A DNA stretch of 64,000 nt from Macrostomum lignano. Its lineage: Eukaryota. The notes below the pieces were generated by a model. The model made no database searches. It was not told the DNA's origin and saw only the letters and a list, made by a program, of their open reading frames with translations. The translations under genes were made by a program, and so were the position numbers. The stretch lies in assembly GCA_002269645.1 (NCBI GenBank), contig NIVC01000032.1:806001-870000 (forward strand), in the 5' to 3' direction. Shown here piece by piece: positions 11,763 through 28,391 of this stretch. Position 1 is the first letter of the stretch, and every line of letters begins with the position of its first letter.

Positions 11763-11848
11763 GAATAGATTACACAAATAAAGAATCCGCAAAAAATGCA
11801 TAGCAACCAAACTAACGAGTCTCCTGAAATCACCGCCGCAACCGCCAG

Positions 11849-12771
11849 GTGGCCTCCAGCTCCCTAGACGCTGGCGCCAAAATCTACGCCGGTCGGGTAG
11901 ACGCAGTCCACCACGAGGCCTACAAAGTTCTTGGCGGGCTTGGCCGGTCCACAACTTCTGCAGAGAAAAAATCCAATGACAACGACATCAACAGCGACGA
12001 TGACGGAGGCAACGCTGGCGAGGCCGACGACGATGACGACAGGCCAATGTCGGGCAACAGGCGCAAAGCTGCGGCCGAACGGAAGCGCCGCCAGAAAGCT
12101 GTGATCGCATCTAATCTGGCTCGGATTCGCTTGAAACCGGCCAGTTTGAGATTTGACGTTGATCCGCTCTTCCAACAGCAGGCGTCCGCTTATGACGATG
12201 GCGGCACGGGAGAACTAAGACTCAACAATGTCTACGTGGTTGACAATGCGTGCGAGATTCTGCTGGATAGCGACGCGTCAGTTTGTATTGGCGCTTGCGA
12301 GTCGACTAATCAAGACACGTCTTCTTTTTCTAACAAGCAGCTATGCCGATTGGAAGATGTTGACATTAGTAACCGTTTAGCAACGGTTGCTAATCGCCTT
12401 GACAGCAGCGTCCTACAAGAAGAAGACGAAGACGAAGCAAATAACGAGTGGCTCTGCTTTGCGTTTAGAAGATTTTCTTTCCTACGTCGAAATGGCGGCG
12501 GCCTAAACGACGTCACATTCGGCGGCGGTTTTGGTGCAGCAGATCAGAGCGCCGTTCTGGCCGATTTTGTTGCCAGACTGCCGCCGCCAGAGGATGATGA
12601 CTATCCCGAGCAGCCGCCTGCTGATCACCTAGACGCGGACGATGATAATCACGGCGGATTCATTGACGAGTGCACTATGGATGCCGGCGTCGGGATGCAG
12701 ATCGACATGTGCGGCGAACGCAACGCTGTGGTGGTTAATACGGCGGATAGTAAACTGGCTGGAGAGAGCTT
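11849..12771 (+). CDS. NCAPH: NCAPH exon 2
   Basis: VASSSLDAGAKIYAGRVDAVHHEAYKVLGGLG is the conserved CAP-H motif; FDVDPLFQQQASAYDDGG also conserved. CAG acceptor ends 11848; GTAAG donor at 12772, phase 2. Confidence 0.9.
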
Positions 12772-12829
12772 GTAAGCACTGGTGGCTTGAATTGGCTGGT
12801 ATTGCTGATGTCAGATGTATTGTAGCCTA

Positions 12830-15744: not shown

Positions 15745-15796
15745 CCCAGAGTGTCCTCAGATCCCATAGTGTCCTCAGATCCCAGAGTGTCCTCAG
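15745..15796. repeat. Left remnant of the 18-nt GTGTCCTCAGATCCCA(G/T)A minisatellite, split by the LTR element
   Basis: Same unit as 26478-27657. Confidence 0.9.
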
Positions 15797-16871
15797 TGAT
15801 GTGTTCCTTATTACCAGTCCTCAACTGTAATCAAGGAACAATCACTTCTAGCTCTGTAGCTAGGCAACCCAGTAATCAAATGAAGGTATTCAATTACCTT
15901 TGAGTCCTTAAATGAGAGCTCTCGTAATAATCCTCGTCCGTAGTATCGCGATCAGTAACTTTCCTTTCCTTCAGGAAGTTTAGGCGCCTGGTAACAGTTG
16001 ATCTGGTCCGTTATCTCCTTTGTCCTCTTGACTTTTTGCCGGCCGGTATCTGTAGTTCGGACCAATAAGAAGCTTCCAAATTAACAATGGGTACCCTGCG
16101 CCAAACTGCGGTTTAATATAAGCCTACTCCTTCTAGCAGTGCCTCTATGCACTCTAGGTATAGCTCCGGAAACCACTGATAGTCTTCTAAGATCTATCAG
16201 GGGCAGTCCTTCTGGAGACTGCAACCAGTAGAGTCTAAACAGACTCAAGAGTCTCAGCAGACTCAAATAAACTCAAGTCTCAATAGACTTGAGCGAGACG
16301 TCTCAACCAACGGGCGCAAATGAGTAAGGCTTACCGCAAGAACTCGTCCACGACGCGAGTTTCTTCAGGAAGGCTTCACTAGAGCTTCCTCTTCGGAGCT
16401 TCTCTCTCTTGGAGATTTTCTGGCTCCGGGTCCGTTCCGGACCACTTGTATTTATAGGCGTTCAGACCTCTCTCGAGGTCGTACATCACTGTCTTCGCAA
16501 ATGTCAAAGGGTCACGATTCGGTGGCTGTCAAGCATGACAGGGTAGAAAGTTGCGCAACTAGTCTACTGTAAAAGCGCATGATTGGTTACCGTAGCTGGT
16601 AGACTTTGATTGGTTCATCCGGGTGCAACCCGAGTGCAAACAAAATGATGACTTGAAGGTGGGGTTTGAATTGACAGTTGTTGGTCGCACGTGATTGGGT
16701 GATTTCTAAAATTAGCATGCTCGAGGTCTCTCTCTTCCTATTGGTTAGTCCGAATATACTTATAGTTCAAAGCATACCTTTATTCATGCTCTTCAATTTA
16801 CTACTAAATAAAATGTGTGAGTAGTACATTAACACTTTTATGTCTTCTTACGGGAGGTAGAACACTCTACA
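15797..16871 (-). repeat. 3' LTR
   Basis: Matches 25403-26477 at a constant offset of 9606 at the start, middle and end; no mismatch seen in spot checks. Confidence 0.97.
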
Positions 16872-17089: not shown

Positions 17090-17302
17090 CTAACAATAGG
17101 CGCACTGCCGCAAACTACTTCTACCTATCGGGCAATTCTGCCAGAGCTGAATATAATGTGAGTCGCTTAAATATTGTCCGCATATGCGATGTCTGTTTTC
17201 ACAAATAATTGGTGGCTTGACAGCCAAGTCATCAGTTAAACATATTGGGCATTCGTAGAGTTGCTGTAGTTGGGGCGCCTGTTTGGACAGTGCGTTGCCC
17301 AT
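17090..17302 (-). CDS. Accessory 70-aa ORF: MGxxxS N-terminus and degenerate C3HC4-type RING finger
   Basis: MGNALS; CPIC-x12-CENRH-x2-CGQ[Y]-x12-CPI[G]R; strong Kozak context ACAATGG. Confidence 0.6.
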   Translation of the reverse strand: MGNALSKQAPQLQQLYECPICLTDDLAVKPPIICENRHRICGQYLSDSHYIQLWQNCPIGRSSLRQCAYC

Positions 17303-17413: not shown

Positions 17414-17664
17414 TTAACGAGGTCGCAGATTGTAGCCATGGTGCTGGTTCTCGGTTGATGTTTGTGTCTCCTCGTGTTTTGTTGCGATGTGGCGGTTCGC
17501 CGAACGCGTGCGATCAGCGTTGTCTAGTGACGGTAAAAACGTTGTCGTGTCAGTGTTGATCTTCTTTAGTCGATGAATGTGCACGTAGAATTGGTGCTGA
17601 TGAGGATCTTGCACATTGGCCAGGCGTGCCGTTGTCGGTGACGTTAGTTGGACCACTCGATATG
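17414..17664 (-). CDS. Integrase C-terminus (GPY/F module) in a shifted frame
   Basis: YRVVQLTSPTTARL...VHIHRLKK...GYNLRPR*. Adding one C at about 17664 restores KYKGPYRVVQ. Confidence 0.8.
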
Positions 17665-20600
17665 TCCTTTGTACTTCTGTGCGTGTTTGTGCGTCTGTTG
17701 CGGCGGATAGTGCAGGTAGACGATGTCGCCGGCTGTCAGAGTTGTCGATCTCGTGTCGGTGCTGGTGGTTAGAGCCACCTGATTGTCGATGTTGTGCTTG
17801 GCTACTTTCCATGCGAGGTGTAGTTGCGTGACGAACTTTTGAATGGACGTCGGGACTTCCACATATTGCGATGGTAGTAGTTGCTGTGCCAATAGGTTTG
17901 GCGGCTGGAAGTCTCGCCCAAACATTAGAAAGAATGGCGTATTGTCCGTTGATCGATGAATAGCGCTGTTGTAGGCCATTGTTACTGCTTGCAGATAGAT
18001 GATCCAGTCGTCCGGTTGTTGATGCGCGAAGTGTGTAATCATCTCGTGTAGGTTGCGGTGAAACCTTTCAACCATGTTCGCCTTCGGATTGTAGGTCGAT
18101 GTGTAGATCTGCGTGATGTTGAGGATCTTCACCACTTGCTGAAAGAGTTGAGACGTAAACTGCGATCCATTGTCCGATGTGAGGTTCTTTGGCGTACCGT
18201 ACTTGCAGATGATGTCGTTGAAGAAACCCATTGCCACTGTCTGAGCTGTGATGTCCGGTATTGGTATGGCAATAGCAAACTTTGAGAAAATGTCCAAGGC
18301 TGTTAGGATGTAGGTGTAGGCTATGCCATGGAGACAGCTCGGTGGCAGCGGTCCGGTGATGTCGATGCTGAGACAGTCCATAGTTGTTGACTTTGGTATC
18401 GATTGTAGCTGTGGTTTTTGTCGTCGTCCTGTCTTCGATGCTGCGCATGAGTGGCAGTTGTTGCAATACTGCTTGATGTCGCCATGCATGCTTGGCCAAA
18501 AGTAGTATTGCTCCACTCTTGCAACGGTTTTGGCTGCCGACAGGTGTCCAGCGAGTGGGTTGTCGTGCAGCTCGTTGAGAATTGCCTGCCTAAACGAATA
18601 TGGCATGTAGATTTTAGGTTTGTTGTCACTCATCCAGTAGAGTCGTGACTTGTTGATTGTTAAATGTTGTCGCTGCTTGCGCAGGAATTTTCGTTCCACG
18701 GGGCTGAGCTTGATGTCCTTGTCGTTGTTTTTAACTGCTATGTAGAAGTTGTCGTGTTCCGTCTCATCCACCAATTCCTTGATGTTAGGGATTGGATGAA
18801 TGGCGTTGACTTCGTAGGCTCTTGACAGGGCGTCCGCGGCCTTGTTAGTAATTCCTGGTTTGTAGACGAGCTTGTAGTTGTAGTCCTGGATCTTGAGTGT
18901 CATCCTGATGAGTCGGTTGTTTGTTTGTCCTTTTGTAGTTACGACGTAGGTCAGCGGTGCGTGATCTGTGCGTACTATCGTCTGTAATGGAGATCCATAG
19001 ATGTAGTAGTGAAACTGTCGTAGGGCGAACAGAACTCCTAGTAGTTCTCGTTCCGTAGCTGACCATTTTGTCTCATTCGGTTTAAGTGCTCGACTGACGT
19101 AGGCTATAGGTCGTTCCTTTTTGTCTTCAGTTTCCTGTAGTAGGACTGCTCCGAGTCCCGTTCCTGAGGCGTCTGTCTCGATGATGAAGGGTTTGTCGAA
19201 GTCCGGATGCTGTAGCAGTGCGTCTGATGTCAGCTGTCGTTTGATTTCGTCAAAACTTTCTTGTTGCTTTTGTGTCCAATTCTCCTGCTTCCATTTGTCG
19301 AACTTGAGCAGGTCGTACAGCGGCTTTGCTGTCTTCGCGAAGTTGGGTAAGAACTTTCGGAAGTATTGCGCAAGTCCAAGAAATGATTGGACCTTCGTTA
19401 TGCTAGTTGGCGTAGGAAACTTTTTCACTTTATCCACGTTGTCTGGGTCCGGTGAAATTCCTTTGGCTGTCACCTGATGTCCCAGGTAACGCACGTTGTC
19501 TCGGAAGAATTTGCATTTAGTTGGTTGTAGCTTCAGACCTTGACGTTGTATAAGCGCGAGGGCCTTCTCCGTCGCTTCATAGAGTCGTTCGAAGTCTTCT
19601 CCGTAGGCCAAGATGTCGTCAACATAGTGCAACAGGTTCGTGCATCCTGCAAGCATGTATGCTGTTAGTCGGCTCATCGTTGCTGGGCTGTTGCTGAGTC
19701 CCATCGGCGATCGATTGTACTCGTATACTTGTCCATTGTAGGTTTTGAAAGCCGTGTACTGTCGTGACTCTTTCTCGATTTCAATTTGCCAAAATCCATG
19801 ACGTAGGTCGAACACTGTGAACAATTTTGCCGTGTTGAGCTTTGCTAGTAGTTCGGAGATCTTCGGTAGGCTTTGCTGATCCGTCGGTATGTACTTGTTC
19901 AGCAGTCTGAAGTCACATACGAGTCGTCTTTCGTTAGTCTCCTTCTTTTGCACCAAGAGACATGGTGATGAGTATGCTGAAATGGCTTTGCTGATGATGC
20001 CGTGTTTCAGCATTTTGTCGATAATCTCATCGAAGTGCTGTTGCAGATGCTTGGCGATCGGGTACGGTTTGCACTGAATTGGTTCCGTGTGCGGCAGAAG
20101 TTTGATTTCCTGTTTGATGTCCTTGGCTCGTCCGATGTCGTAGTCATGGTGGCAGAAAGCGTCGTTGTACTTCCACAACAGCTGTCGAACTTTCCTCTTT
20201 TGCTGTTCCGTAATCGGGCTGTCATCCAAATTGATCTTCTTTTGAAATTCTTCCTCTGTTAGTCGTGGAGTCGCTTGCTCAATCAGCATAACCGATGCTT
20301 GGGTGTTGAGATGACCGATGCACATTCCTTGTCGTAGATGAACCGTTTCTGTGTTCGGGTTGAATATTTGTACTGGCAGCTGTTTATCTTTTGCAACCAG
20401 TACTAGTGCCGTAGGCATCATAATTTGGTGTTTAGCCGTGACTCTTCTGTTTGGGTCGAATATCATTGCTTCCTCCGTTGCGTTAGTTGCCTTTGCCTTT
20501 ATCCAGCAGGCGCTCTCCGGTTGGATGATGACATCTTGTTGCAATGTTACTTTTGGTAGTACTCGGATCTGGTTGATCAATGGTTGTTCTACCGAGTCGA

Positions 20601-20960
20601 TCTTAAACGTTTGCTTATTGAAGTCGAAGGTCAATGGTAGTCTAAGCTGCTTGAACGTGTCGATGCCAACAATAACGTCCTGGTTTGGGAGTCTGTCGAT
20701 GACGTACGATGGAACTGTCAAATGTTTATTAGCGATTCTTAAATCAATGTCGGCTTTTCCCAGAATGTTTAGCGAATGTCCTCCTGCTCCTGCAACTGCG
20801 ATTGTTGCTGGCCGTAGAGCAAGTCGTAGCTTGTTGCACAGTTGTTTTGATATAACTGTGATGGAGCTGCCGGAATCGAGTAGCGCTCGACATGGTAGAT
20901 TGTTGATTACCACTTGAGCCATGGCTTTGCCAATTTCGGCGTGTAGAGTACATACGTAGT
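17644..20960 (-). CDS. pol: Pol: aspartic protease, reverse transcriptase, RNase H, integrase
   Basis: LLDSGSS (DSG at 20869-20877); YVDD at 19615-19626; IETDASGTGLGAVL RNase H; HHCC and DDE integrase (SIDITGP, SDNGSQF, VERFHR). Confidence 0.97.
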
Positions 20961-21195
20961 TCTCTGGCCATTTTGGGTCTTGCTGTTCTGCTTGATAGTT
21001 AGGTGGTTGTATTCTTGGTGCCGTTGGTGTTGTCGGAATCGATGGATATAGCCGCGTTGCTAGTGTCGGTTGCCCTTGAACCTCACGATGTGCAGTTTCT
21101 GTTAGTTCTAAACTGTTGTCGCCTTCCGTTGTCGTTCTTTGCATTATGGCATTCACTGTCTTCTTAGCTGTTGGACAAGTTTGACTGAAGCACCG

Positions 21196-22927
21196 TACGA
21201 TTGACGAGATGATGAAGACTGCCGTGACAATCCACACAATGCAAGCACCGTAGAAGATGAATCCTTGATAGAGACTGCCTCTTCCATTGAGCAGCTCCCA
21301 GAAGCTGTTTGTCCAAAATGATTTGATGGCGCTGTCCATTGAAACAAGGACGGGAAATCTTCCTGTCTCGGTTCCTTTGTCCTTTCTTGTGAACAGCTGG
21401 TGAATCATCTTGCGTTGGGTGATGAACGCTTGCAAGAAGTCGTTGATCGTCCATCCTGGTGTTATCTCGTCAAGTTGGATATCGGCGAATGGCGTATACT
21501 TCGTTCTGTTGAATCGGATTTTCAAATCCTCCATGTCGTAGTTTTCGTCGACGATTACTTCCGGTTCTGTGATGTTTGCTGTCGTTCCAGTTGTTTTGAT
21601 GACGTGTAGTGCATTGTCCAGTTGATAATAGTTTGCTGCCGTGGTGCAAGGTCTCGGTATTGCGGTGCCAACGATGATGTTGTGTACCGTGTCCAAGAAT
21701 CCCTGAATTCGTTTTCCTTCGTAGAACGCTTCAATCCTTGGCTTGTCGTAGCAGGTTGTTGACGTGTTCGACGGCAAGATGTTAAAGTGCTGTATCGGCG
21801 TGCACTTGTATATCAACAGATGCTCGTATATTGGAACTGCCAAAACGTTCGTCATTCCGGTGATTTTACGAAAAGTCATCGTAGGGTTGACATAGTAGTT
21901 TTGTCTGGCATAATTTAAGTTGATTGCGTGCATTTTGCAAGTTAGCTGGACCAGTGTTCGATGCAAGTGGTTTAACTGGTTGTGTAGATTGTGATCCAAA
22001 GCCGTTATCTTTGCTGACAGTAGTCGGTTTGACACCAGTTTGGGACGTTCGATGTCACGTCGTCGTCTGTTCTGTTGTTCCTGCTGTTGATACGTTCCGT
22101 TGATGATCGCCAGAAAGGTTTGTTTGTCGTCATCTTTTACGTAGACTGGTATCTCTTGTTCCGAGATGAATAGTGTCTTGTCTGTATCCTTGCATTTCAG
22201 TTTTTGCTCGACTGGTTTCTTTTGAAACGTCAGTGCCAAGTCTCCTGACTTTGCCAAAAACGTGTTTGACAGTAGACCTCCTTCAACTGTGTGATACTTT
22301 TGAAGCTTGCAGTCAATTTCCGGCTCAACTTCCCACGCGAAGAAGTATTGTCGTGACTTAGATGGTTCTTCATATCGTGAGTCGCCTCTGCGTATAATTT
22401 GCCATCGATAGTCTTGATGATATGTTGGACTCAACGGTAAGCTGTATAGTTCCTCATTCCGCAGTATCGGCGTTGGACACCATCCTTTGCTGTATCGGCA
22501 GTCACTTAATTGCAGTTGTAGCGACTCCATTTTTTCAAAAGGATTGTGGTAGAATGGAATATTCCTGATTAGGTAACTGTTTCGTGTCATGTAGTTAGTC
22601 CATGCTTCCGAAAAGTGTACATATCGTCCGTTTGCTGAGTTCTTCGTTCGGTAAAGTTGTGCCTCCCCCACTTTCTCATCCGGTTCTAGCTGACCATCCT
22701 TTGAGAACAGTGTTTGGTTCCATTGTAGACATTCAGCGTGCGACACATGTAGTTCGTGTTGCCAAAATCGAATTCTGTTCCATTGTCCTCGCCAAACTTT
22801 TTCCACTAGGTGCTTGTCTCTAAAGCACACTATTCCGAGTTGTCGATGCTTCTTGATGTTAGCTTTGTAGAGATCAATTGTGATCTTCTTTGGCTTCGTC
22901 TGATTTGTCTTGAAGTAGCTGCATTTG
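21196..22927 (-). CDS. env: gB-like (class III fusion) envelope glycoprotein ectodomain and TM, in frame with pol
   Basis: Furin site RRRR (22057-22068); helix ...VQLTCKMHAINLNY; NPT...A...C motif; CYDKP...G.L...PC; several NxT/S sequons; TM at 21196-21261. Confidence 0.8.
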
Positions 22928-23246
22928 ATGTCGTTGGTATCTTGTAGATCATCGGTTGGATATGCGCATCCGTTGGACATATCATTGGTTTCTCCATTGC
23001 TGTTGCTTTGGTGACTACTGCCGTCAGTAGTATTATGATGATCCAGAATATCCAGAATCGCCATTTTCTGAACGTTGCCGTTGTCTTTGCTGGCATTGGC
23101 TGCGGCTGCCATTCGTTATCTTCTGCGTCCGCATCGTATTCTTCCTCTTGTTCCATTGGCGTTTCCGAGCGCAAGGCATCCGATTCGTTCCGCTGCTTGT
23201 CGTCTTCATCATTTTCTCCTTGCTTTCTTCCGATGTTGTAGTTGTG
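22830..23246 (-). CDS. Bridging frame: acidic linker, internal signal peptide and N-terminus of env
   Basis: Frame open from 23246; RKWRFWIFWIIIILLTAVVTKATA|MEKPMICP has n, h and c regions with an A-x-A cleavage site (22998-23069). Confidence 0.7.
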   Translation of the reverse strand, partial: HNYNIGRKQGENDEDDKQRNESDALRSETPMEQEEEYDADAEDNEWQPQPMPAKTTATFRKWRFWIFWIIIILLTAVVTKATAMEKPMICPTDAHIQPMIYKIPTTSNAATSRQIRRSQRRSQLISTKLTSRSIDNSE

Positions 23247-24730
23247 TCACTCCATTGTCTGCGGTACCCTACTTCGGCCTTGTAGTCGACTGTTTGAATG
23301 TAGGCTTCACCATTTCGTTTATATCGGATCTCGTAGCATTGATCGCTGTCGGAGCTTAGATTTCTTTCTTCCATTCCTTTGTGCCTTCCGTCTTCATGTT
23401 CTTTGTCGGCGGCTTGGTTGTCATCAGCGTCATTCTGCATCTCATAATCGTGATCGCTGCTTTCTTCTTGCTGTTCTTCTTCCATTTCTGCATTTCCGTC
23501 GTTGCTTCTTTCGTTGTCATCCTTCGTTGCCAGTTCTTTGTCGTTGCCTTTGTTTGTTTCTTCTTTTCTTTCATTGATGTCGCTTGGCAATGTTTTTTCT
23601 GTGCTCACTTCTGCCTTTTCTTCTTCGCTGTCAATGTTAGTTTCTTTCATTTCGACCATGCTGATGTTTTTTGTCTTTTCGCTGCTCTCCGCATCGAGCC
23701 AGTCGATTTCATTGATAGTAAAGTCCATTTCTAAGTCGTCTATCGTGAAGACTTGCTGCTCTTGCTGTTCGCTTTCCGGTGTGTACGTGATGGCGTTTGC
23801 ATATCGTTGCATCGCTTGCGTTGGTTGCTTGGGCATGTATCTGGCGTTTCGCGGTCTGTAGCCATTGTTTCCGAAGCGTTTCGTGTTTTGCTGCTGCCAA
23901 TTTTGATGCTGTTGCCATGGTTTTTGCGGCTTCCGTCTGTTGAATGGCTGTCGCGGCATATCATTTCTTGTTGACCGATGAGGACAATTAATTTGGTAGT
24001 GTCCTTCTCGTCCACAGTAATAGCATCTGGCTTGGGCTCGTTCATTTCGTCTTTTTTGTTCGGCGATAACGGCTGTTTGATGTTGCATCAGTTTGTTTAG
24101 TTGCTGTGTCAGTTTCTGCACTTCTGTGTTGCCGGTTGTCATTAGTGGAGCGCTTGCTTCCCACTGCATTCCGCACCGTAAAAGGTCTTCCTCGGTTTCA
24201 ATGTTTTCGCGTAGAAGTCTATCTCGGAGTGACGGCTGTGCATTGTTTATTACGTGCAGAATCAGATTTTGTTCGCGATCCATCAATCGCTGTCGCTCTC
24301 TAGCGGCTAATTCTGCCGCACCCAGAGGTGGTTGGTCTGCAGCTGGCAGTGTTGGCTGATGCAGTGCCTTAATTATCTGACGGATGTCGTCCACAAAGGT
24401 CAGGAAGGATTCGGTTGGCTGCATCCTTCTGTTATGCAACTTGTGCAGTAGCACTGATCTGTTTGTGCCACAGCGGTTGAAATGCGCGCGCAGTTGAATG
24501 ATTAATGCTGGGTAGTTTTGCTGTGTTGCCGCATCTAGTTTACCATAAATCTCTCGTGCAGTGCCTTGGAGGAGTGGTGGCAACAGTTGCGCTTTTTCTG
24601 GATTTTGTAGGTTGTATTCCCTACATACCAGGTCAAAATGATCAACAAAGGTGTTAAAGTCTTTTTCCATAGAAAAGGTGCCAACTGTCTCTTTGATATC
24701 TCTGTGCACCGTTGGATTGCGCCGCGCCAT
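23033..24730 (-). CDS. gag: Gag (capsid, CX2CX4HX4C zinc knuckle, acidic linker)
   Basis: First ATG at 24730 (MARRNP); retrotransposon-gag-like helical region; CYYCGREGHYQINC at 23984-24025; long D/E-rich tail. The frame is open from 24979. Confidence 0.85.
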   Translation of the reverse strand: MARRNPTVHRDIKETVGTFSMEKDFNTFVDHFDLVCREYNLQNPEKAQLLPPLLQGTAREIYGKLDAATQQNYPALIIQLRAHFNRCGTNRSVLLHKLHNRRMQPTESFLTFVDDIRQIIKALHQPTLPAADQPPLGAAELAARERQRLMDREQNLILHVINNAQPSLRDRLLRENIETEEDLLRCGMQWEASAPLMTTGNTEVQKLTQQLNKLMQHQTAVIAEQKRRNERAQARCYYCGREGHYQINCPHRSTRNDMPRQPFNRRKPQKPWQQHQNWQQQNTKRFGNNGYRPRNARYMPKQPTQAMQRYANAITYTPESEQQEQQVFTIDDLEMDFTINEIDWLDAESSEKTKNISMVEMKETNIDSEEEKAEVSTEKTLPSDINERKEETNKGNDKELATKDDNERSNDGNAEMEEEQQEESSDHDYEMQNDADDNQAADKEHEDGRHKGMEERNLSSDSDQCYEIRYKRNGEAYIQTVDYKAEVGYRRQWSDTTTTSEESKEKMMKTTSSGTNRMPCARKRQWNKRKNTMRTQKITNGSRSQCQQRQRQRSENGDSGYSGSS

Positions 24731-25382
24731 GTTGTTGATGGGATAGAACGGTAGCTCTAGGTCTGGGTCGATTTGTAATGGATCTTCCAGTGTGGTGTTT
24801 CTTTCGAAATAAACTTCGGTTGTAACTGATTGTCTCGCGGCGCTTTTGACACCTCGGCTTTCGGCTTTTGGCTGCTTTTTCTGACCTCTTATTCGCTGGC
24901 TGATTTTCGCACTTATGCGGCGTCCCGCAAAGTGTATCTTTAAAGTGCTTGAAGTGCAGCTGCTTATTGCTTTTTTCAAAGGCCTTTCTTGTCTTCGTGA
25001 CGTGCCTTGTCACGTTTTATCAAATTTCGGTTTGTTTTAGCTTTCGTCAAGTGTTTTTAATTTCGGTTTTGTTTTAGTGTGTATTGATTATTTTTCGGTT
25101 TGTTTTCAGTGTACCGGACGTTGTTTTCGGTTTTGTTTAAGGTTTACTCTTGCTCGAGCTCGTTAAAAACAAAAATTTAACACGCGTGCTCAAACGTTAC
25201 TCAAAATTGACAGGTACTCAAGCCTGTATATCTAAACTTTTACTCGAGTTTCAAATCGTACAAAAATCGAAAAGTGTCGAAAAGTGTTACCTCTAACACG
25301 TGCGCGCAAAATTAATGAAGTCGCTCTTTCGTCACTTTACAATAGCTTGGCCAGGCTATTGCTCAAAAGTTTGAGTAGTGCC

Positions 25383-25400
25383 GAGAGGGCGAGATCACCA
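25383..25400 (-). other. Primer-binding site TGGTGATCTCGCCC
   Basis: TGG starts 2 nt inside the 5' LTR boundary and is complementary to a tRNA CCA end; the tRNA is not assigned. Confidence 0.7.
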
Positions 25401-25402
25401 AT

Positions 25403-26477
25403 TGATGTGTTCCTTATTACCAGTCCTCAACTGTAATCAAGGAACAATCACTTCTAGCTCTGTAGCTAGGCAACCCAGTAATCAAATGAAGGTATTCAAT
25501 TACCTTTGAGTCCTTAAATGAGAGCTCTCGTAATAATCCTCGTCCGTAGTATCGCGATCAGTAACTTTCCTTTCCTTCAGGAAGTTTAGGCGCCTGGTAA
25601 CAGTTGATCTGGTCCGTTATCTCCTTTGTCCTCTTGACTTTTTGCCGGCCGGTATCTGTAGTTCGGACCAATAAGAAGCTTCCAAATTAACAATGGGTAC
25701 CCTGCGCCAAACTGCGGTTTAATATAAGCCTACTCCTTCTAGCAGTGCCTCTATGCACTCTAGGTATAGCTCCGGAAACCACTGATAGTCTTCTAAGATC
25801 TATCAGGGGCAGTCCTTCTGGAGACTGCAACCAGTAGAGTCTAAACAGACTCAAGAGTCTCAGCAGACTCAAATAAACTCAAGTCTCAATAGACTTGAGC
25901 GAGACGTCTCAACCAACGGGCGCAAATGAGTAAGGCTTACCGCAAGAACTCGTCCACGACGCGAGTTTCTTCAGGAAGGCTTCACTAGAGCTTCCTCTTC
26001 GGAGCTTCTCTCTCTTGGAGATTTTCTGGCTCCGGGTCCGTTCCGGACCACTTGTATTTATAGGCGTTCAGACCTCTCTCGAGGTCGTACATCACTGTCT
26101 TCGCAAATGTCAAAGGGTCACGATTCGGTGGCTGTCAAGCATGACAGGGTAGAAAGTTGCGCAACTAGTCTACTGTAAAAGCGCATGATTGGTTACCGTA
26201 GCTGGTAGACTTTGATTGGTTCATCCGGGTGCAACCCGAGTGCAAACAAAATGATGACTTGAAGGTGGGGTTTGAATTGACAGTTGTTGGTCGCACGTGA
26301 TTGGGTGATTTCTAAAATTAGCATGCTCGAGGTCTCTCTCTTCCTATTGGTTAGTCCGAATATACTTATAGTTCAAAGCATACCTTTATTCATGCTCTTC
26401 AATTTACTACTAAATAAAATGTGTGAGTAGTACATTAACACTTTTATGTCTTCTTACGGGAGGTAGAACACTCTACA
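25403..26477 (-). repeat. 5' LTR
   Basis: Begins TGTAGAG and ends CACATCA on the minus strand; followed by the PBS. Confidence 0.97.
26055..26062 (-). promoter_or_regulatory. LTR TATA box (TATAAATA) with four upstream CCAAT boxes
   Basis: Plus-strand TATTTATA at 26055 (16449 in the 3' LTR). ATTGG at 16582, 16609, 16694 and 16740 (add 9606 for the 5' LTR). Confidence 0.65.
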
Positions 26478-27657
26478 TCAGATCCCAAGAGTGTCCTCAG
26501 ATCACATTTTGTCCTCAGATCCCAGAGTGTCCTCAGATCCCAGAGTGTCCTCAGATCATAAAGTGTCCTCAGATCCCAGTGTCCTCAGATCACAGAGTGT
26601 CCTCAGATCCCATCGTGTCCTCAGATCACAGTGTCCTCAGATCCCATAGTGTCCTCAGATCCCATAGTGTCCTCAGATCCCAGAGTGTCCTCAGATCCCA
26701 TAGTGTCCTCAGATCACATTTTGTCCTCAGATCCCAAGAGTGTCCTCAGATCACATTTTGTCCTCAGATCCCATAGTGTCCTCAGATCACAGTGTCCTCA
26801 GATCCCATAGTGTCCTCAGATCCCATAGAGTCCTCAGATCCCATAGTGTCCTCAGATCACAGTGTCCTCAGATACCATAGTGTCCTCAGATCCCATAGTG
26901 TCCTCAGATCCCAGAGTGTCCTCAGATCCCATAGTGTCCTCAGATCACATTTTGTCCTCAGATCCCAAGAGTGTCCTCAGATCACATTTTGTCCTCAGAT
27001 CCCATAGTGTCTTCAGATCACAGTGTCTCAGATCCCAGAGTGTCCTCAGATCACATTTTGTCCTCAGATCCCAAGAGTGTCCTCAGATCCCAAGAGTGTC
27101 CTCAGATCCCAAGAGTGTCCTCAGATCCCAAGAGTGTCCTCAGATCCCAGAGTGTCCTCAGATCACATTTTGTCCTCAGATCCCAAGAGTGTCCTCAGAT
27201 CCCAAGAGTGTCCTCAGATCCCAAGAGTGTCCTCAGATCCCAAGAGTGTCCTCAGATCCCAGAGTGTCCTCAGATCACATAGTGTCCTCAGATCACAAAG
27301 TGTCCTCAGATCACAGGGTGTCCTCAGATCCCAGAGTGTCCTCAGATCACATAGTGTCCTCAGATCACAGGGTGTCCTCAGATCACAGGGTGTCCTCAGA
27401 TCCCAGAGTGTCCTCAGATCCCAGAGTGTCCTCAGATCCCAGAATGTCCTCAGATCCCAGAGTGTCCTCAGATCCCAAGAGTGTCCTCAGATCCCAGAGT
27501 GTCCTCAGATCCCATAGTGTCCTCAGATCACAAAGTGTCCTCAGATCACAGGGTGTCCTCAGATCCCAGAGTGTCCTCAGATCACATAGTGTCCTCAGAT
27601 CACAGGGTGTCCTCAGATCACAGGGTGTCCTCAGATCCCAGAGTTTCCTCAGATCCA
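26478..27657. repeat. 18/19-nt minisatellite GTGTCCTCAGATCCCA(A)GA, about 65 copies
   Basis: Direct reading of tandem units. Confidence 0.95.
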
Positions 27658-27753
27658 AAATTGTATTGATACGAATGTAGAATTCTAAATTTTATTTTAC
27701 TGTAACTATTTTTAATATTCCTAAATGCCTTCTCTAATTACGACAAAACACAG

Positions 27754-28095
27754 GTGAACCAAGTGGACATTGCCTACGCTAAAACTGCCAAGCGGATCAA
27801 CATCAGCCGCCTCAAGCGGTCAATGTGGCAATTGCTAGAAACTGACGGCAGTCCCGCCGCTGCTGTCACAGCCATGGAAGTGTGCAGCCAGGACAACTCT
27901 TCAACTCGTCGAAACAGTCAGAAAGAAGACGAAATTGTTGGCAACAACGATGCAAATAATGAGGCATTGTTTAATGGCGAAAGATCATTTGCCAGATTGT
28001 TGCAACAATTGCCGCCGAAAGTTGGCGCAACCACTGCTCAGGATCTGTCTGTGTCTATTGTATTCAGCTGTCTGTTGTACCTGGCTAATGAGAAG
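27754..28095 (+). CDS. NCAPH: NCAPH exon 5 (C-terminal winged-helix region)
   Basis: VNQVDIAYAKTAKRINISRLKRSMWQLL and LSVSIVFSCLLYLANEK motifs; CAG acceptor and GTTAGT donor, both phase 0. Confidence 0.92.
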
Positions 28096-28181
28096 GTTAG
28101 TATTGATTGCATGTTTTTTTCTTCTACTGTAAGTAGTATAAAAACCCAGCTAACAAATAGAAATGTTATTCAATTTGCCAG

Positions 28182-28391
28182 ACCCTGCACCTAACTAGCA
28201 GTGAGAACCTGTCGGACATGAGCATAACACACGGACTGCCAAAACACGAAGTCGATCTCAGAGTGGCTTTAAACCCGCGATTGAAACAACAGCAGCAGCA
28301 ACAACAATCGAGCGAGCAGGCAAAACGCAAGCGTCAGGCCACCATCCAGGAGCTGTGGGGGGCGGACAGCGATGAAGACGAGGATTTGTAA
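28182..28391 (+). CDS. NCAPH: NCAPH terminal exon
   Basis: CAG acceptor ends 28181; TLHLTSSENLSDMSI resembles human NLKLEGTEDLSDVLV; TAA at 28389-28391. Confidence 0.85.
   Translation, partial: TLHLTSSENLSDMSITHGLPKHEVDLRVALNPRLKQQQQQQQSSEQAKRKRQATIQELWGADSDEDEDL

Follow-up and report, generated by a model that had tools for sequence, protein, structure and literature searches.

A selected cluster of late-domain motifs in the Env tail of a known kind of Ty3/gypsy element from Macrostomum lignano, with a predicted role in budding

How might an env-bearing retrotransposon of a flatworm leave its host cell? The question is raised by a locus of Macrostomum lignano at which three short motifs of the late-domain type lie between the transmembrane segment (TM) of an Env protein and the protease that follows it. 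Env-mediated transmission is still elusive for most such elements outside Drosophila (PMC13524379). According to the available part of PMC8402826, P(T/S)AP binds the UEV domain of TSG101, YPXnL the V domain of ALIX and PPxY the WW domains of the NEDD4 family, and these motifs are exchangeable and often combined; the ELM class names used for them are found in PMC8728146. In this work we studied a stretch of 64,000 nucleotides, referred to as the window. The initial annotation had reported the three motifs within 20 residues and proposed that budding is driven from the glycoprotein tail or from a p6-like peptide. Positions 20992-21054 of the minus strand indeed encode exactly the 21 residues quoted there, with the three motifs between the TM and the protease.

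The motifs belong to an element with the following features, given by position in the window.

15793-15796 and 26478-26481: 4-bp target duplication, TCAG
25403..26477, minus strand: 5' LTR, 1,075 bp, with TG...CA termini on the minus strand
15797..16871, minus strand: 3' LTR, 1,075 bp
25389..25400, minus strand: primer-binding site, a 12-mer shared with the listed Platyhelminthes_Rhabditophora_Mlig_errantivirus_2 (PMC13524379, supplement, seen in part)
23033..25009, minus strand: gag frame with a single CCHC knuckle (zf-CCHC E 0.0013, below the cut-off)
22998..23057, minus strand: hydrophobic helix 1, a putative signal anchor preceding the Env ectodomain; its frame in the window copy is a separate one (22830-23246)
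21274..22880, minus strand: predicted gB-type (class III) Env ectodomain, from a weak PF24664 match and a fold search, with approximate boundaries
22068-22057, minus strand: furin-like RRRR within the Env ectodomain
21196..21261, minus strand: hydrophobic helix 2 (Env TM), then cysteines and basic residues, from hydropathy; seen in all local families
21145..21156, minus strand: VNAI segment, candidate site of the element's own protease, from residue conservation
21037..21051, minus strand: LYPSI, a short LYPxL-type (ALIX V-domain) motif
21016..21027, minus strand: PTAP (TSG101 UEV) motif
20995..21006, minus strand: PPNY, a PPxY (WW-domain) motif
20641..20916, minus strand: aspartic protease (PF13650, E 3.4e-10)
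18085..19950, minus strand: RT, RNase H and integrase in Ty3/gypsy order (PF00078, PF17917/PF17919, PF17921, PF00665)
17090..17302, minus strand: short accessory RING-like ORF, truncated in the window copy

On its domain order and the published family, the element is assigned to the Ty3/gypsy LTR retrotransposons (Metaviridae): it has LTRs with TG...CA termini, a target duplication, a primer-binding site and the pol order protease, RT, RNase H, integrase. The two LTRs are identical over all 1,075 bp, so the insertion is recent. The env gene lies between gag and pol, as in the GAG-ENV-POL errantiviruses; elements of this arrangement with a gB-type Env were described in Nematoda, Bryozoa and Platyhelminthes by Chary and Hayashi (PMC13524379, seen in part). 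The element is a GAG-ENV-POL errantivirus of the HSV/gB type, a published kind of element and hence already known. A 94%-identical protein is assigned by its source to M. lignano. It is inserted in an 18-bp tandem repeat, apparently within a condensin subunit 2 gene, with a PF05786 match on its left (11828-12775, plus strand) and, on its right, a frame that resembles a later exon (27706-28194, plus strand). The remainder of the window, from 28500 to 64000, is dense in simple and tandem repeats with units of 8-31 bp and strong strand skews.

The env-pol frame (17644-23115, minus strand) is 1,823 aa long. In it the fusion match is followed by the helix and the motif linker, and these by the protease, RT, RNase H and integrase. 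The Monjiviricetes_fusion match upstream of the protease is weak and sub-threshold in Pfam (E 4.4e-5, 22 bits against a cut-off of 27). A model of the region from env to the protease had herpesvirus gB ectodomains in every match listed by Foldseek (best E 4.5e-9, probability 1.0), with TM-scores of only 0.16-0.30 for a model of pTM 0.29 and mean pLDDT 65 built from an alignment of 25 sequences. As modelled, the Env of this element folds like herpesvirus gB, with a class III ectodomain between two hydrophobic segments.

Despite the LTR identity, the reading frame of the window copy is broken near 23.2, 22.85 and 17.65 kb, so that as assembled this copy cannot make the full precursor. These breaks are either assembly indels or real decay; open frames of up to 2,538 aa are found in sibling copies, many of which have scattered breaks too. 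The Gag knuckle and Env share a single frame at both own-family loci examined and at 3 of 5 loci of other families (of the remaining two, one starts after the knuckle and one is broken). At both own-family sibling loci helix 1 shares the frame of Gag and Env; among the loci read, it lies above the hydrophobicity threshold in L083, L084, L086, L088 and L089 and below it in L085. The single frame of the siblings thus reads Gag, helix 1, gB-type ectodomain, helix 2, tail, then protease, RT, RNase H and integrase. A WP dipeptide lies just before the protease (20965-20975, minus strand). It recurs in the local families and in many distant tails, often with a V/I-x-x-I/L segment after it.

An accessory ORF lies between the integrase and the 3' LTR (L111-L125). 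It is at most 216-222 aa long, has two RING-like cysteine clusters and occurs in the siblings and in a related family at ~55% identity. It has 104 matches in the genome, is shortened to 70-124 aa in many copies and is accompanied by a second RING-like ORF nearby at some loci. Its product is possibly a ubiquitin ligase. Its N-terminus is of the myristoylation-like form MGxxxS in the element's own family and not in the ~55% family. A role as a matrix protein like arenavirus Z was considered and is rejected for now, as no late motif was found in any ORF read and the N-terminal MG is missing in the ~55% family.

Within the env-pol frame, the motifs occupy residues 689-707, about 50 aa past the hydrophobic helix (residues ~619-640) and about 40 aa ahead of the protease active-site motif (residue 745). 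The stretch falls inside a segment with pLDDT below 50, which we read as a probable disordered linker. The tail runs in frame into Pol without ending, and the segment is therefore both an Env tail and an N-terminal leader of Pol. PTAP and PPNY follow the late-domain patterns exactly, and neither the gag nor the env-pol frame has any further P[TS]AP or PPxY match. LYPSI carries I in place of L; we take the ELM short-class LYPxL pattern to permit I at the last place. Contigs from four of four runs span the cluster without an indel (region compared, 20600-21600), and their sole difference within it is at 21013, a third codon position; the cluster is thus not an assembly artefact.

Motifs this short may also arise by chance in a disordered linker that is rich in proline and threonine. 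In shuffles of the 81-aa tail, any one of them is found at a rate of 6% (PTAP 1.8%, PPxY 4.0%, PhiYPx[LI] 0.4%), whereas all three together appeared in none of 200,000 shuffles. Conservation and occurrence in relatives bear on the same point.

A search of the genome gave 124 matches, and 74 loci were read (30, plus 8 of which 3 repeat a place, plus 36 hand-picked across the range of identities). Among the 50 loci of the element's own family, P[TS]AP is present in 47, the exceptions being one PPAP, one locus out of frame and one that lacks a protease match; PPxY and [LM]YPSI are each present in 48, the first place of the latter being L or M among siblings. At the codon level, 45 in-frame own-family loci representing 24 DNA haplotypes were compared. 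Among the 10 motif-defining positions there are 6 synonymous variants, and only 1 position is changed, in a single copy; in the spacer, 21 of 36 positions vary (Fisher p=0.008). In the PPxY motif, P, P and Y are fixed among siblings, and four residues (N, T, I, G) occur at the free position. By these sequence comparisons, the motifs are under purifying selection within the family.

In the family at ~55% identity (6 loci), PTAP is found in 5 and IYP[KR]I in all 6, and none of the 6 tails has PPxY. In the families at 24-36% identity (18 loci), PSAP is present in 17 (one is broken) and LYPTL in 2, and PPxY is likewise absent from all 18 tails. The order of the motifs is YP then PTAP here and is reversed in the ~55% family and in L053, and the spacing varies as well; such differences are what motif turnover would look like in sequence. 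P[TS]AP was kept in all six local lineages tested, although their tails are only 23-56% identical. The shuffle chance of P[TS]AP is 0.018-0.089 per local lineage, and these values do not multiply since the lineages are kin. As far as the loci read tell, the three-motif cluster is restricted to the element's own family.

More distant relatives were sought with phmmer, which returned 138 proteins; the M. lignano proteins P0001, P0003 and P0011 were set aside, and so was P0004. P0001, the sole match of a profile search and considered as a longer homologue, turned out to be a chimeric gene model in which splicing passes over the motif cluster, and it was excluded as evidence. Twenty of the distant proteins were checked for their origin, of which 1 is from Haemonchus contortus and 2 are from M. 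lignano. Env was matched in 51 proteins; after removal of 14 with no TM found, a truncation or a tail shorter than 40 aa, 37 tails remained. Nine of these carry P[TS]AP, PPxY or PhiYPx[LI] against 1.5 expected, and the env-matching proteins have 11 motif matches in 4,158 aa of tails against 11 in 43,578 aa outside them. For proteins found by the ectodomain alone, the count was 6/24 tails against 0.9 expected. A further 83 proteins matched by the protease only, 39 of them with enough upstream sequence. Where a TM was present upstream, 6 of 14 carry a motif (0.4 expected); where it was not, 2 of 25 do (0.7 expected), and both resemble fragments of env tails.

Pooled, 16 of 51 distant tails have a motif against 1.9 expected, an enrichment of about 9-fold. 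The distant tails are not independent, because motif-bearing rows (17/51) group on a quick env tree, with 9 changes against 14.3 after shuffling and at least 6 forced by strong branches. After clustering, with P0009 dropped and a motif-less member taken where possible, 11 of 38 tails still carry one (1.5 expected, p<=0.0003). Each motif class is enriched separately, and two classes occur together in 3 distant tails against 0.04 expected. The YP pattern was broadened to [LMIVF] post hoc, after IYPKI had appeared in the local family; with the strict [LM]YPx[LI], 1 match against 0.14 expected was left after clustering, which is not significant (p=0.13). Permuted decoys mostly score 0-2 in the distant tails. 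The decoy [TS]APP scores 5 against 4 for P[TS]AP, and 3 of its matches are the same sites, read as P[TS]APP. Given the 0/200,000 triple, the selected positions, the distant enrichment and the low decoys, chance is largely refuted and hardly credible any longer.

The initial annotation had named as a check whether all three motifs are conserved in related elements while the flanking tail diverges. This held for the defining positions, which are conserved within the family as the flank changes, for P[T/S]AP across the local families and, as enrichment, for the three classes in distant tails. It did not hold for the cluster as a whole, which is confined to the own family, for PPxY, which is missing from the other local tails, or for the 35 of 51 distant tails that are motif-free; placement in the tail is therefore not general. 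Nor is the tail the only site of such motifs, as PSAP or PPxY is also found in the Gag of other local families. The Gag frame of the own family has no P[TS]AP or PPxY, its only related match being a YPAL without a hydrophobic residue before the Y. In the ~55% family, whose tail lacks PPxY, this motif stands at the end of Gag directly before helix 1 at both loci read. Between them, the Gag parts of L083, L084, L085 and L086 hold PPPY and PPAY directly ahead of helix 1, an additional PSAP and one PPRY; all these Gag matches are raw counts. A PPxY on the Gag side where the tail has none would agree with what is known of late domains, which are portable (PMC8402826).

Lentiviral p6 lies directly ahead of the protease. 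The segment, which has the same position and is perhaps bounded by protease sites, might thus be a p6-like C-terminus of Gag that was pushed out of place by the insertion of env between gag and pol, and kept by descent or as a freed peptide instead of as part of Env. Ordinary junctions between a Gag knuckle and the protease in env-less, protease-found proteins carry a motif in none of 12 cases, a small control set (Fisher p=0.026). Moreover, the type and order of the motifs change among lineages, which argues for ongoing selection in place. We regard such a relic as very unlikely.

Functions other than the binding of ESCRT or Nedd4-type proteins have to be weighed as well, namely protease cleavage at an aromatic residue and proline (Y-P or W-P), binding of SH3 domains to proline-rich sequence, or trafficking by way of YxxPhi. 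Retroviral proteases typically cut at aromatic-proline sites, each of the six local lineages keeps WP directly ahead of its protease, and YPSI also matches YxxPhi. These functions leave P[TS]AP and the free x of PPxY unexplained, the domain junctions of the element look like V/I-x-x-I/L and not like aromatic-proline, and YxxPhi without proline is at chance in the distant tails (22 against 21.3 expected). We hold them to be most improbable. The 20-aa cluster very probably represents selected host-ligand sites.

Candidate partners are encoded by the host. The M. lignano genome has a TSG101 UEV domain (E 1e-44 to the human domain) contained in one exon (L076:1474-1875), an ALIX V domain and matches to the HECT class as a whole. 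Compared with human TSG101, the host UEV has H for Y at position 63 and V for F at position 142, two positions that presumably line the PTAP pocket. For host Hrs, the helical domain was found; no in-frame PSAP lies within the exon range read, and the upstream exons are outside that range.

We propose that the job of these motifs is probably particle budding, the cytosolic linker between Env and Pol acting as a late-domain module. The Gag-Env-Pol polyprotein would cross the membrane twice, at helix 1 and helix 2, with only the ectodomain between them in the lumen. Gag, and the motif-bearing tail together with Pol, would by this topology be cytosolic, and Pol would be packaged through Env. For membrane scission, the tail would bring TSG101/ESCRT-I (by PTAP), ALIX (by LYPSI) and Nedd4-type ligases (by PPxY) to the site of assembly. 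Since the Gag of the own family lacks PTAP and PPxY, it would be the Env-Pol linker that supplies ESCRT recruitment.

More weakly, the protease of the element may cut on both sides of the segment, at VNAI behind the TM and at VCTL ahead of the protease, so that a p6-like peptide of 60-70 aa is released and Env keeps only a short tail. Seven residues around VNAI are invariant in the 24 haplotypes despite synonymous changes, the same four residues recur at the RNase H/integrase junction (18810), and the domain junctions of the element resemble V/I-x-x-I/L. The p6-like peptide suggested in the initial annotation thus gains some support from this invariant segment; the cleavage itself is what we infer from it.

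The same ligands might also act on Env as cargo, through ubiquitination and sorting to multivesicular endosomes, with scission independent of the tail; turnover, targeting to an assembly compartment and exosome-like export would all come under this. Every conservation and enrichment result fits it equally, many relatives keep Env without motifs, and the cellular adaptors HRS and ARRDC1 also use P(T/S)AP (PMC8402826, seen in part). Sequence data cannot separate budding from sorting. Against sorting, plain endocytic signals, of which the dileucine type counts 6 in the distant tails against 5.0 expected, are not enriched there, and where PPxY is missing from the tail it is found in Gag. In addition, three classes within 20 aa of a structural polyprotein is the retroviral pattern, as in MLV with PSAP, LYPAL and PPPY (PMC8402826). 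Sorting as the sole role is in our judgement unlikely, and budding remains the function that we favour.

As a tentative and somewhat doubtful extension, an ESCRT route organised by the fusogen may be how many GAG-ENV-POL errantiviruses bud, in flatworms, nematodes and other invertebrates. The precursor would span the membrane twice, the signal anchor would tether Gag, Pol would be packaged via the Env tail, and exchangeable late domains in that tail would be freed by the element's own protease as a combined p6/R-type peptide. If this is true, late-domain budding in the style of retroviruses arose separately in Ty3/gypsy elements, on a different protein. The selected motifs offer a concrete exit route that can be tested, as well as independent evidence for enveloped particles in env-bearing retrotransposons outside insects, and their placement in the Env-Pol linker instead of Gag suggests an assembly logic unlike that of retroviruses. 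A laboratory flatworm as host, with many recent copies, makes host-side tests practical.

In sum, the motif cluster is real and selected; the element that carries it is of a known kind, its location seems not to have been reported before, and its function is a prediction. No report of late domains on a Ty3/gypsy Env tail was found in the part of the literature covered, which does not extend to Sacco et al. 2022 on nematode elements. PMC13524379 deals with ectodomains and pol; in its available main text the terms 'late domain', 'ESCRT', 'cytoplasmic' and 'polyprotein' do not occur, and PTAP has no match in the available supplements, whose sequence rows are ectodomain alignments and so say nothing about the tail. 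PMC7923801 gave no match for 'glycoprotein' or 'retrotransposon'.

Among known systems, the closest in kind is Platyhelminthes_Rhabditophora_Mlig_errantivirus_2, which likewise has a Ty3/gypsy pol, a gB-type env between gag and pol, a flatworm host and the same 12-mer primer-binding site, and is multicopy and recent (PMC13524379, seen in part). Its LTRs are listed at ~864 bp against 1,075 bp here, in a comparison by description and not by sequence (PMC13524379), and on this difference the window copy may belong to a sister subfamily. In the available part of PMC8402826, the late domains of HIV-1 p6, EIAV p9, MLV MA/p12 and HERV-K are of the same three classes, clustered, set in a disordered segment and exchangeable in position, as here. 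They are carried by Gag or matrix (PMC8402826), whereas the present cluster follows the Env TM in a Gag-Env-Pol frame and is known from sequence alone.

Another resemblance is to the gammaretroviral R peptide, a cytosolic piece of the Env tail that is removed by the viral protease at maturation; the corresponding cleavage here is only a candidate. We know of no late domain in the R peptide and of no enzymes after it. For late domains on a glycoprotein, bluetongue virus NS3 is a precedent by analogy: in this viral membrane glycoprotein, PSAP and PPRY bind TSG101 and NEDD4 for egress (PMC7409164, seen in part). NS3 differs in being a non-structural protein of a non-enveloped dsRNA virus, and it is neither a fusogen nor fused to Pol.
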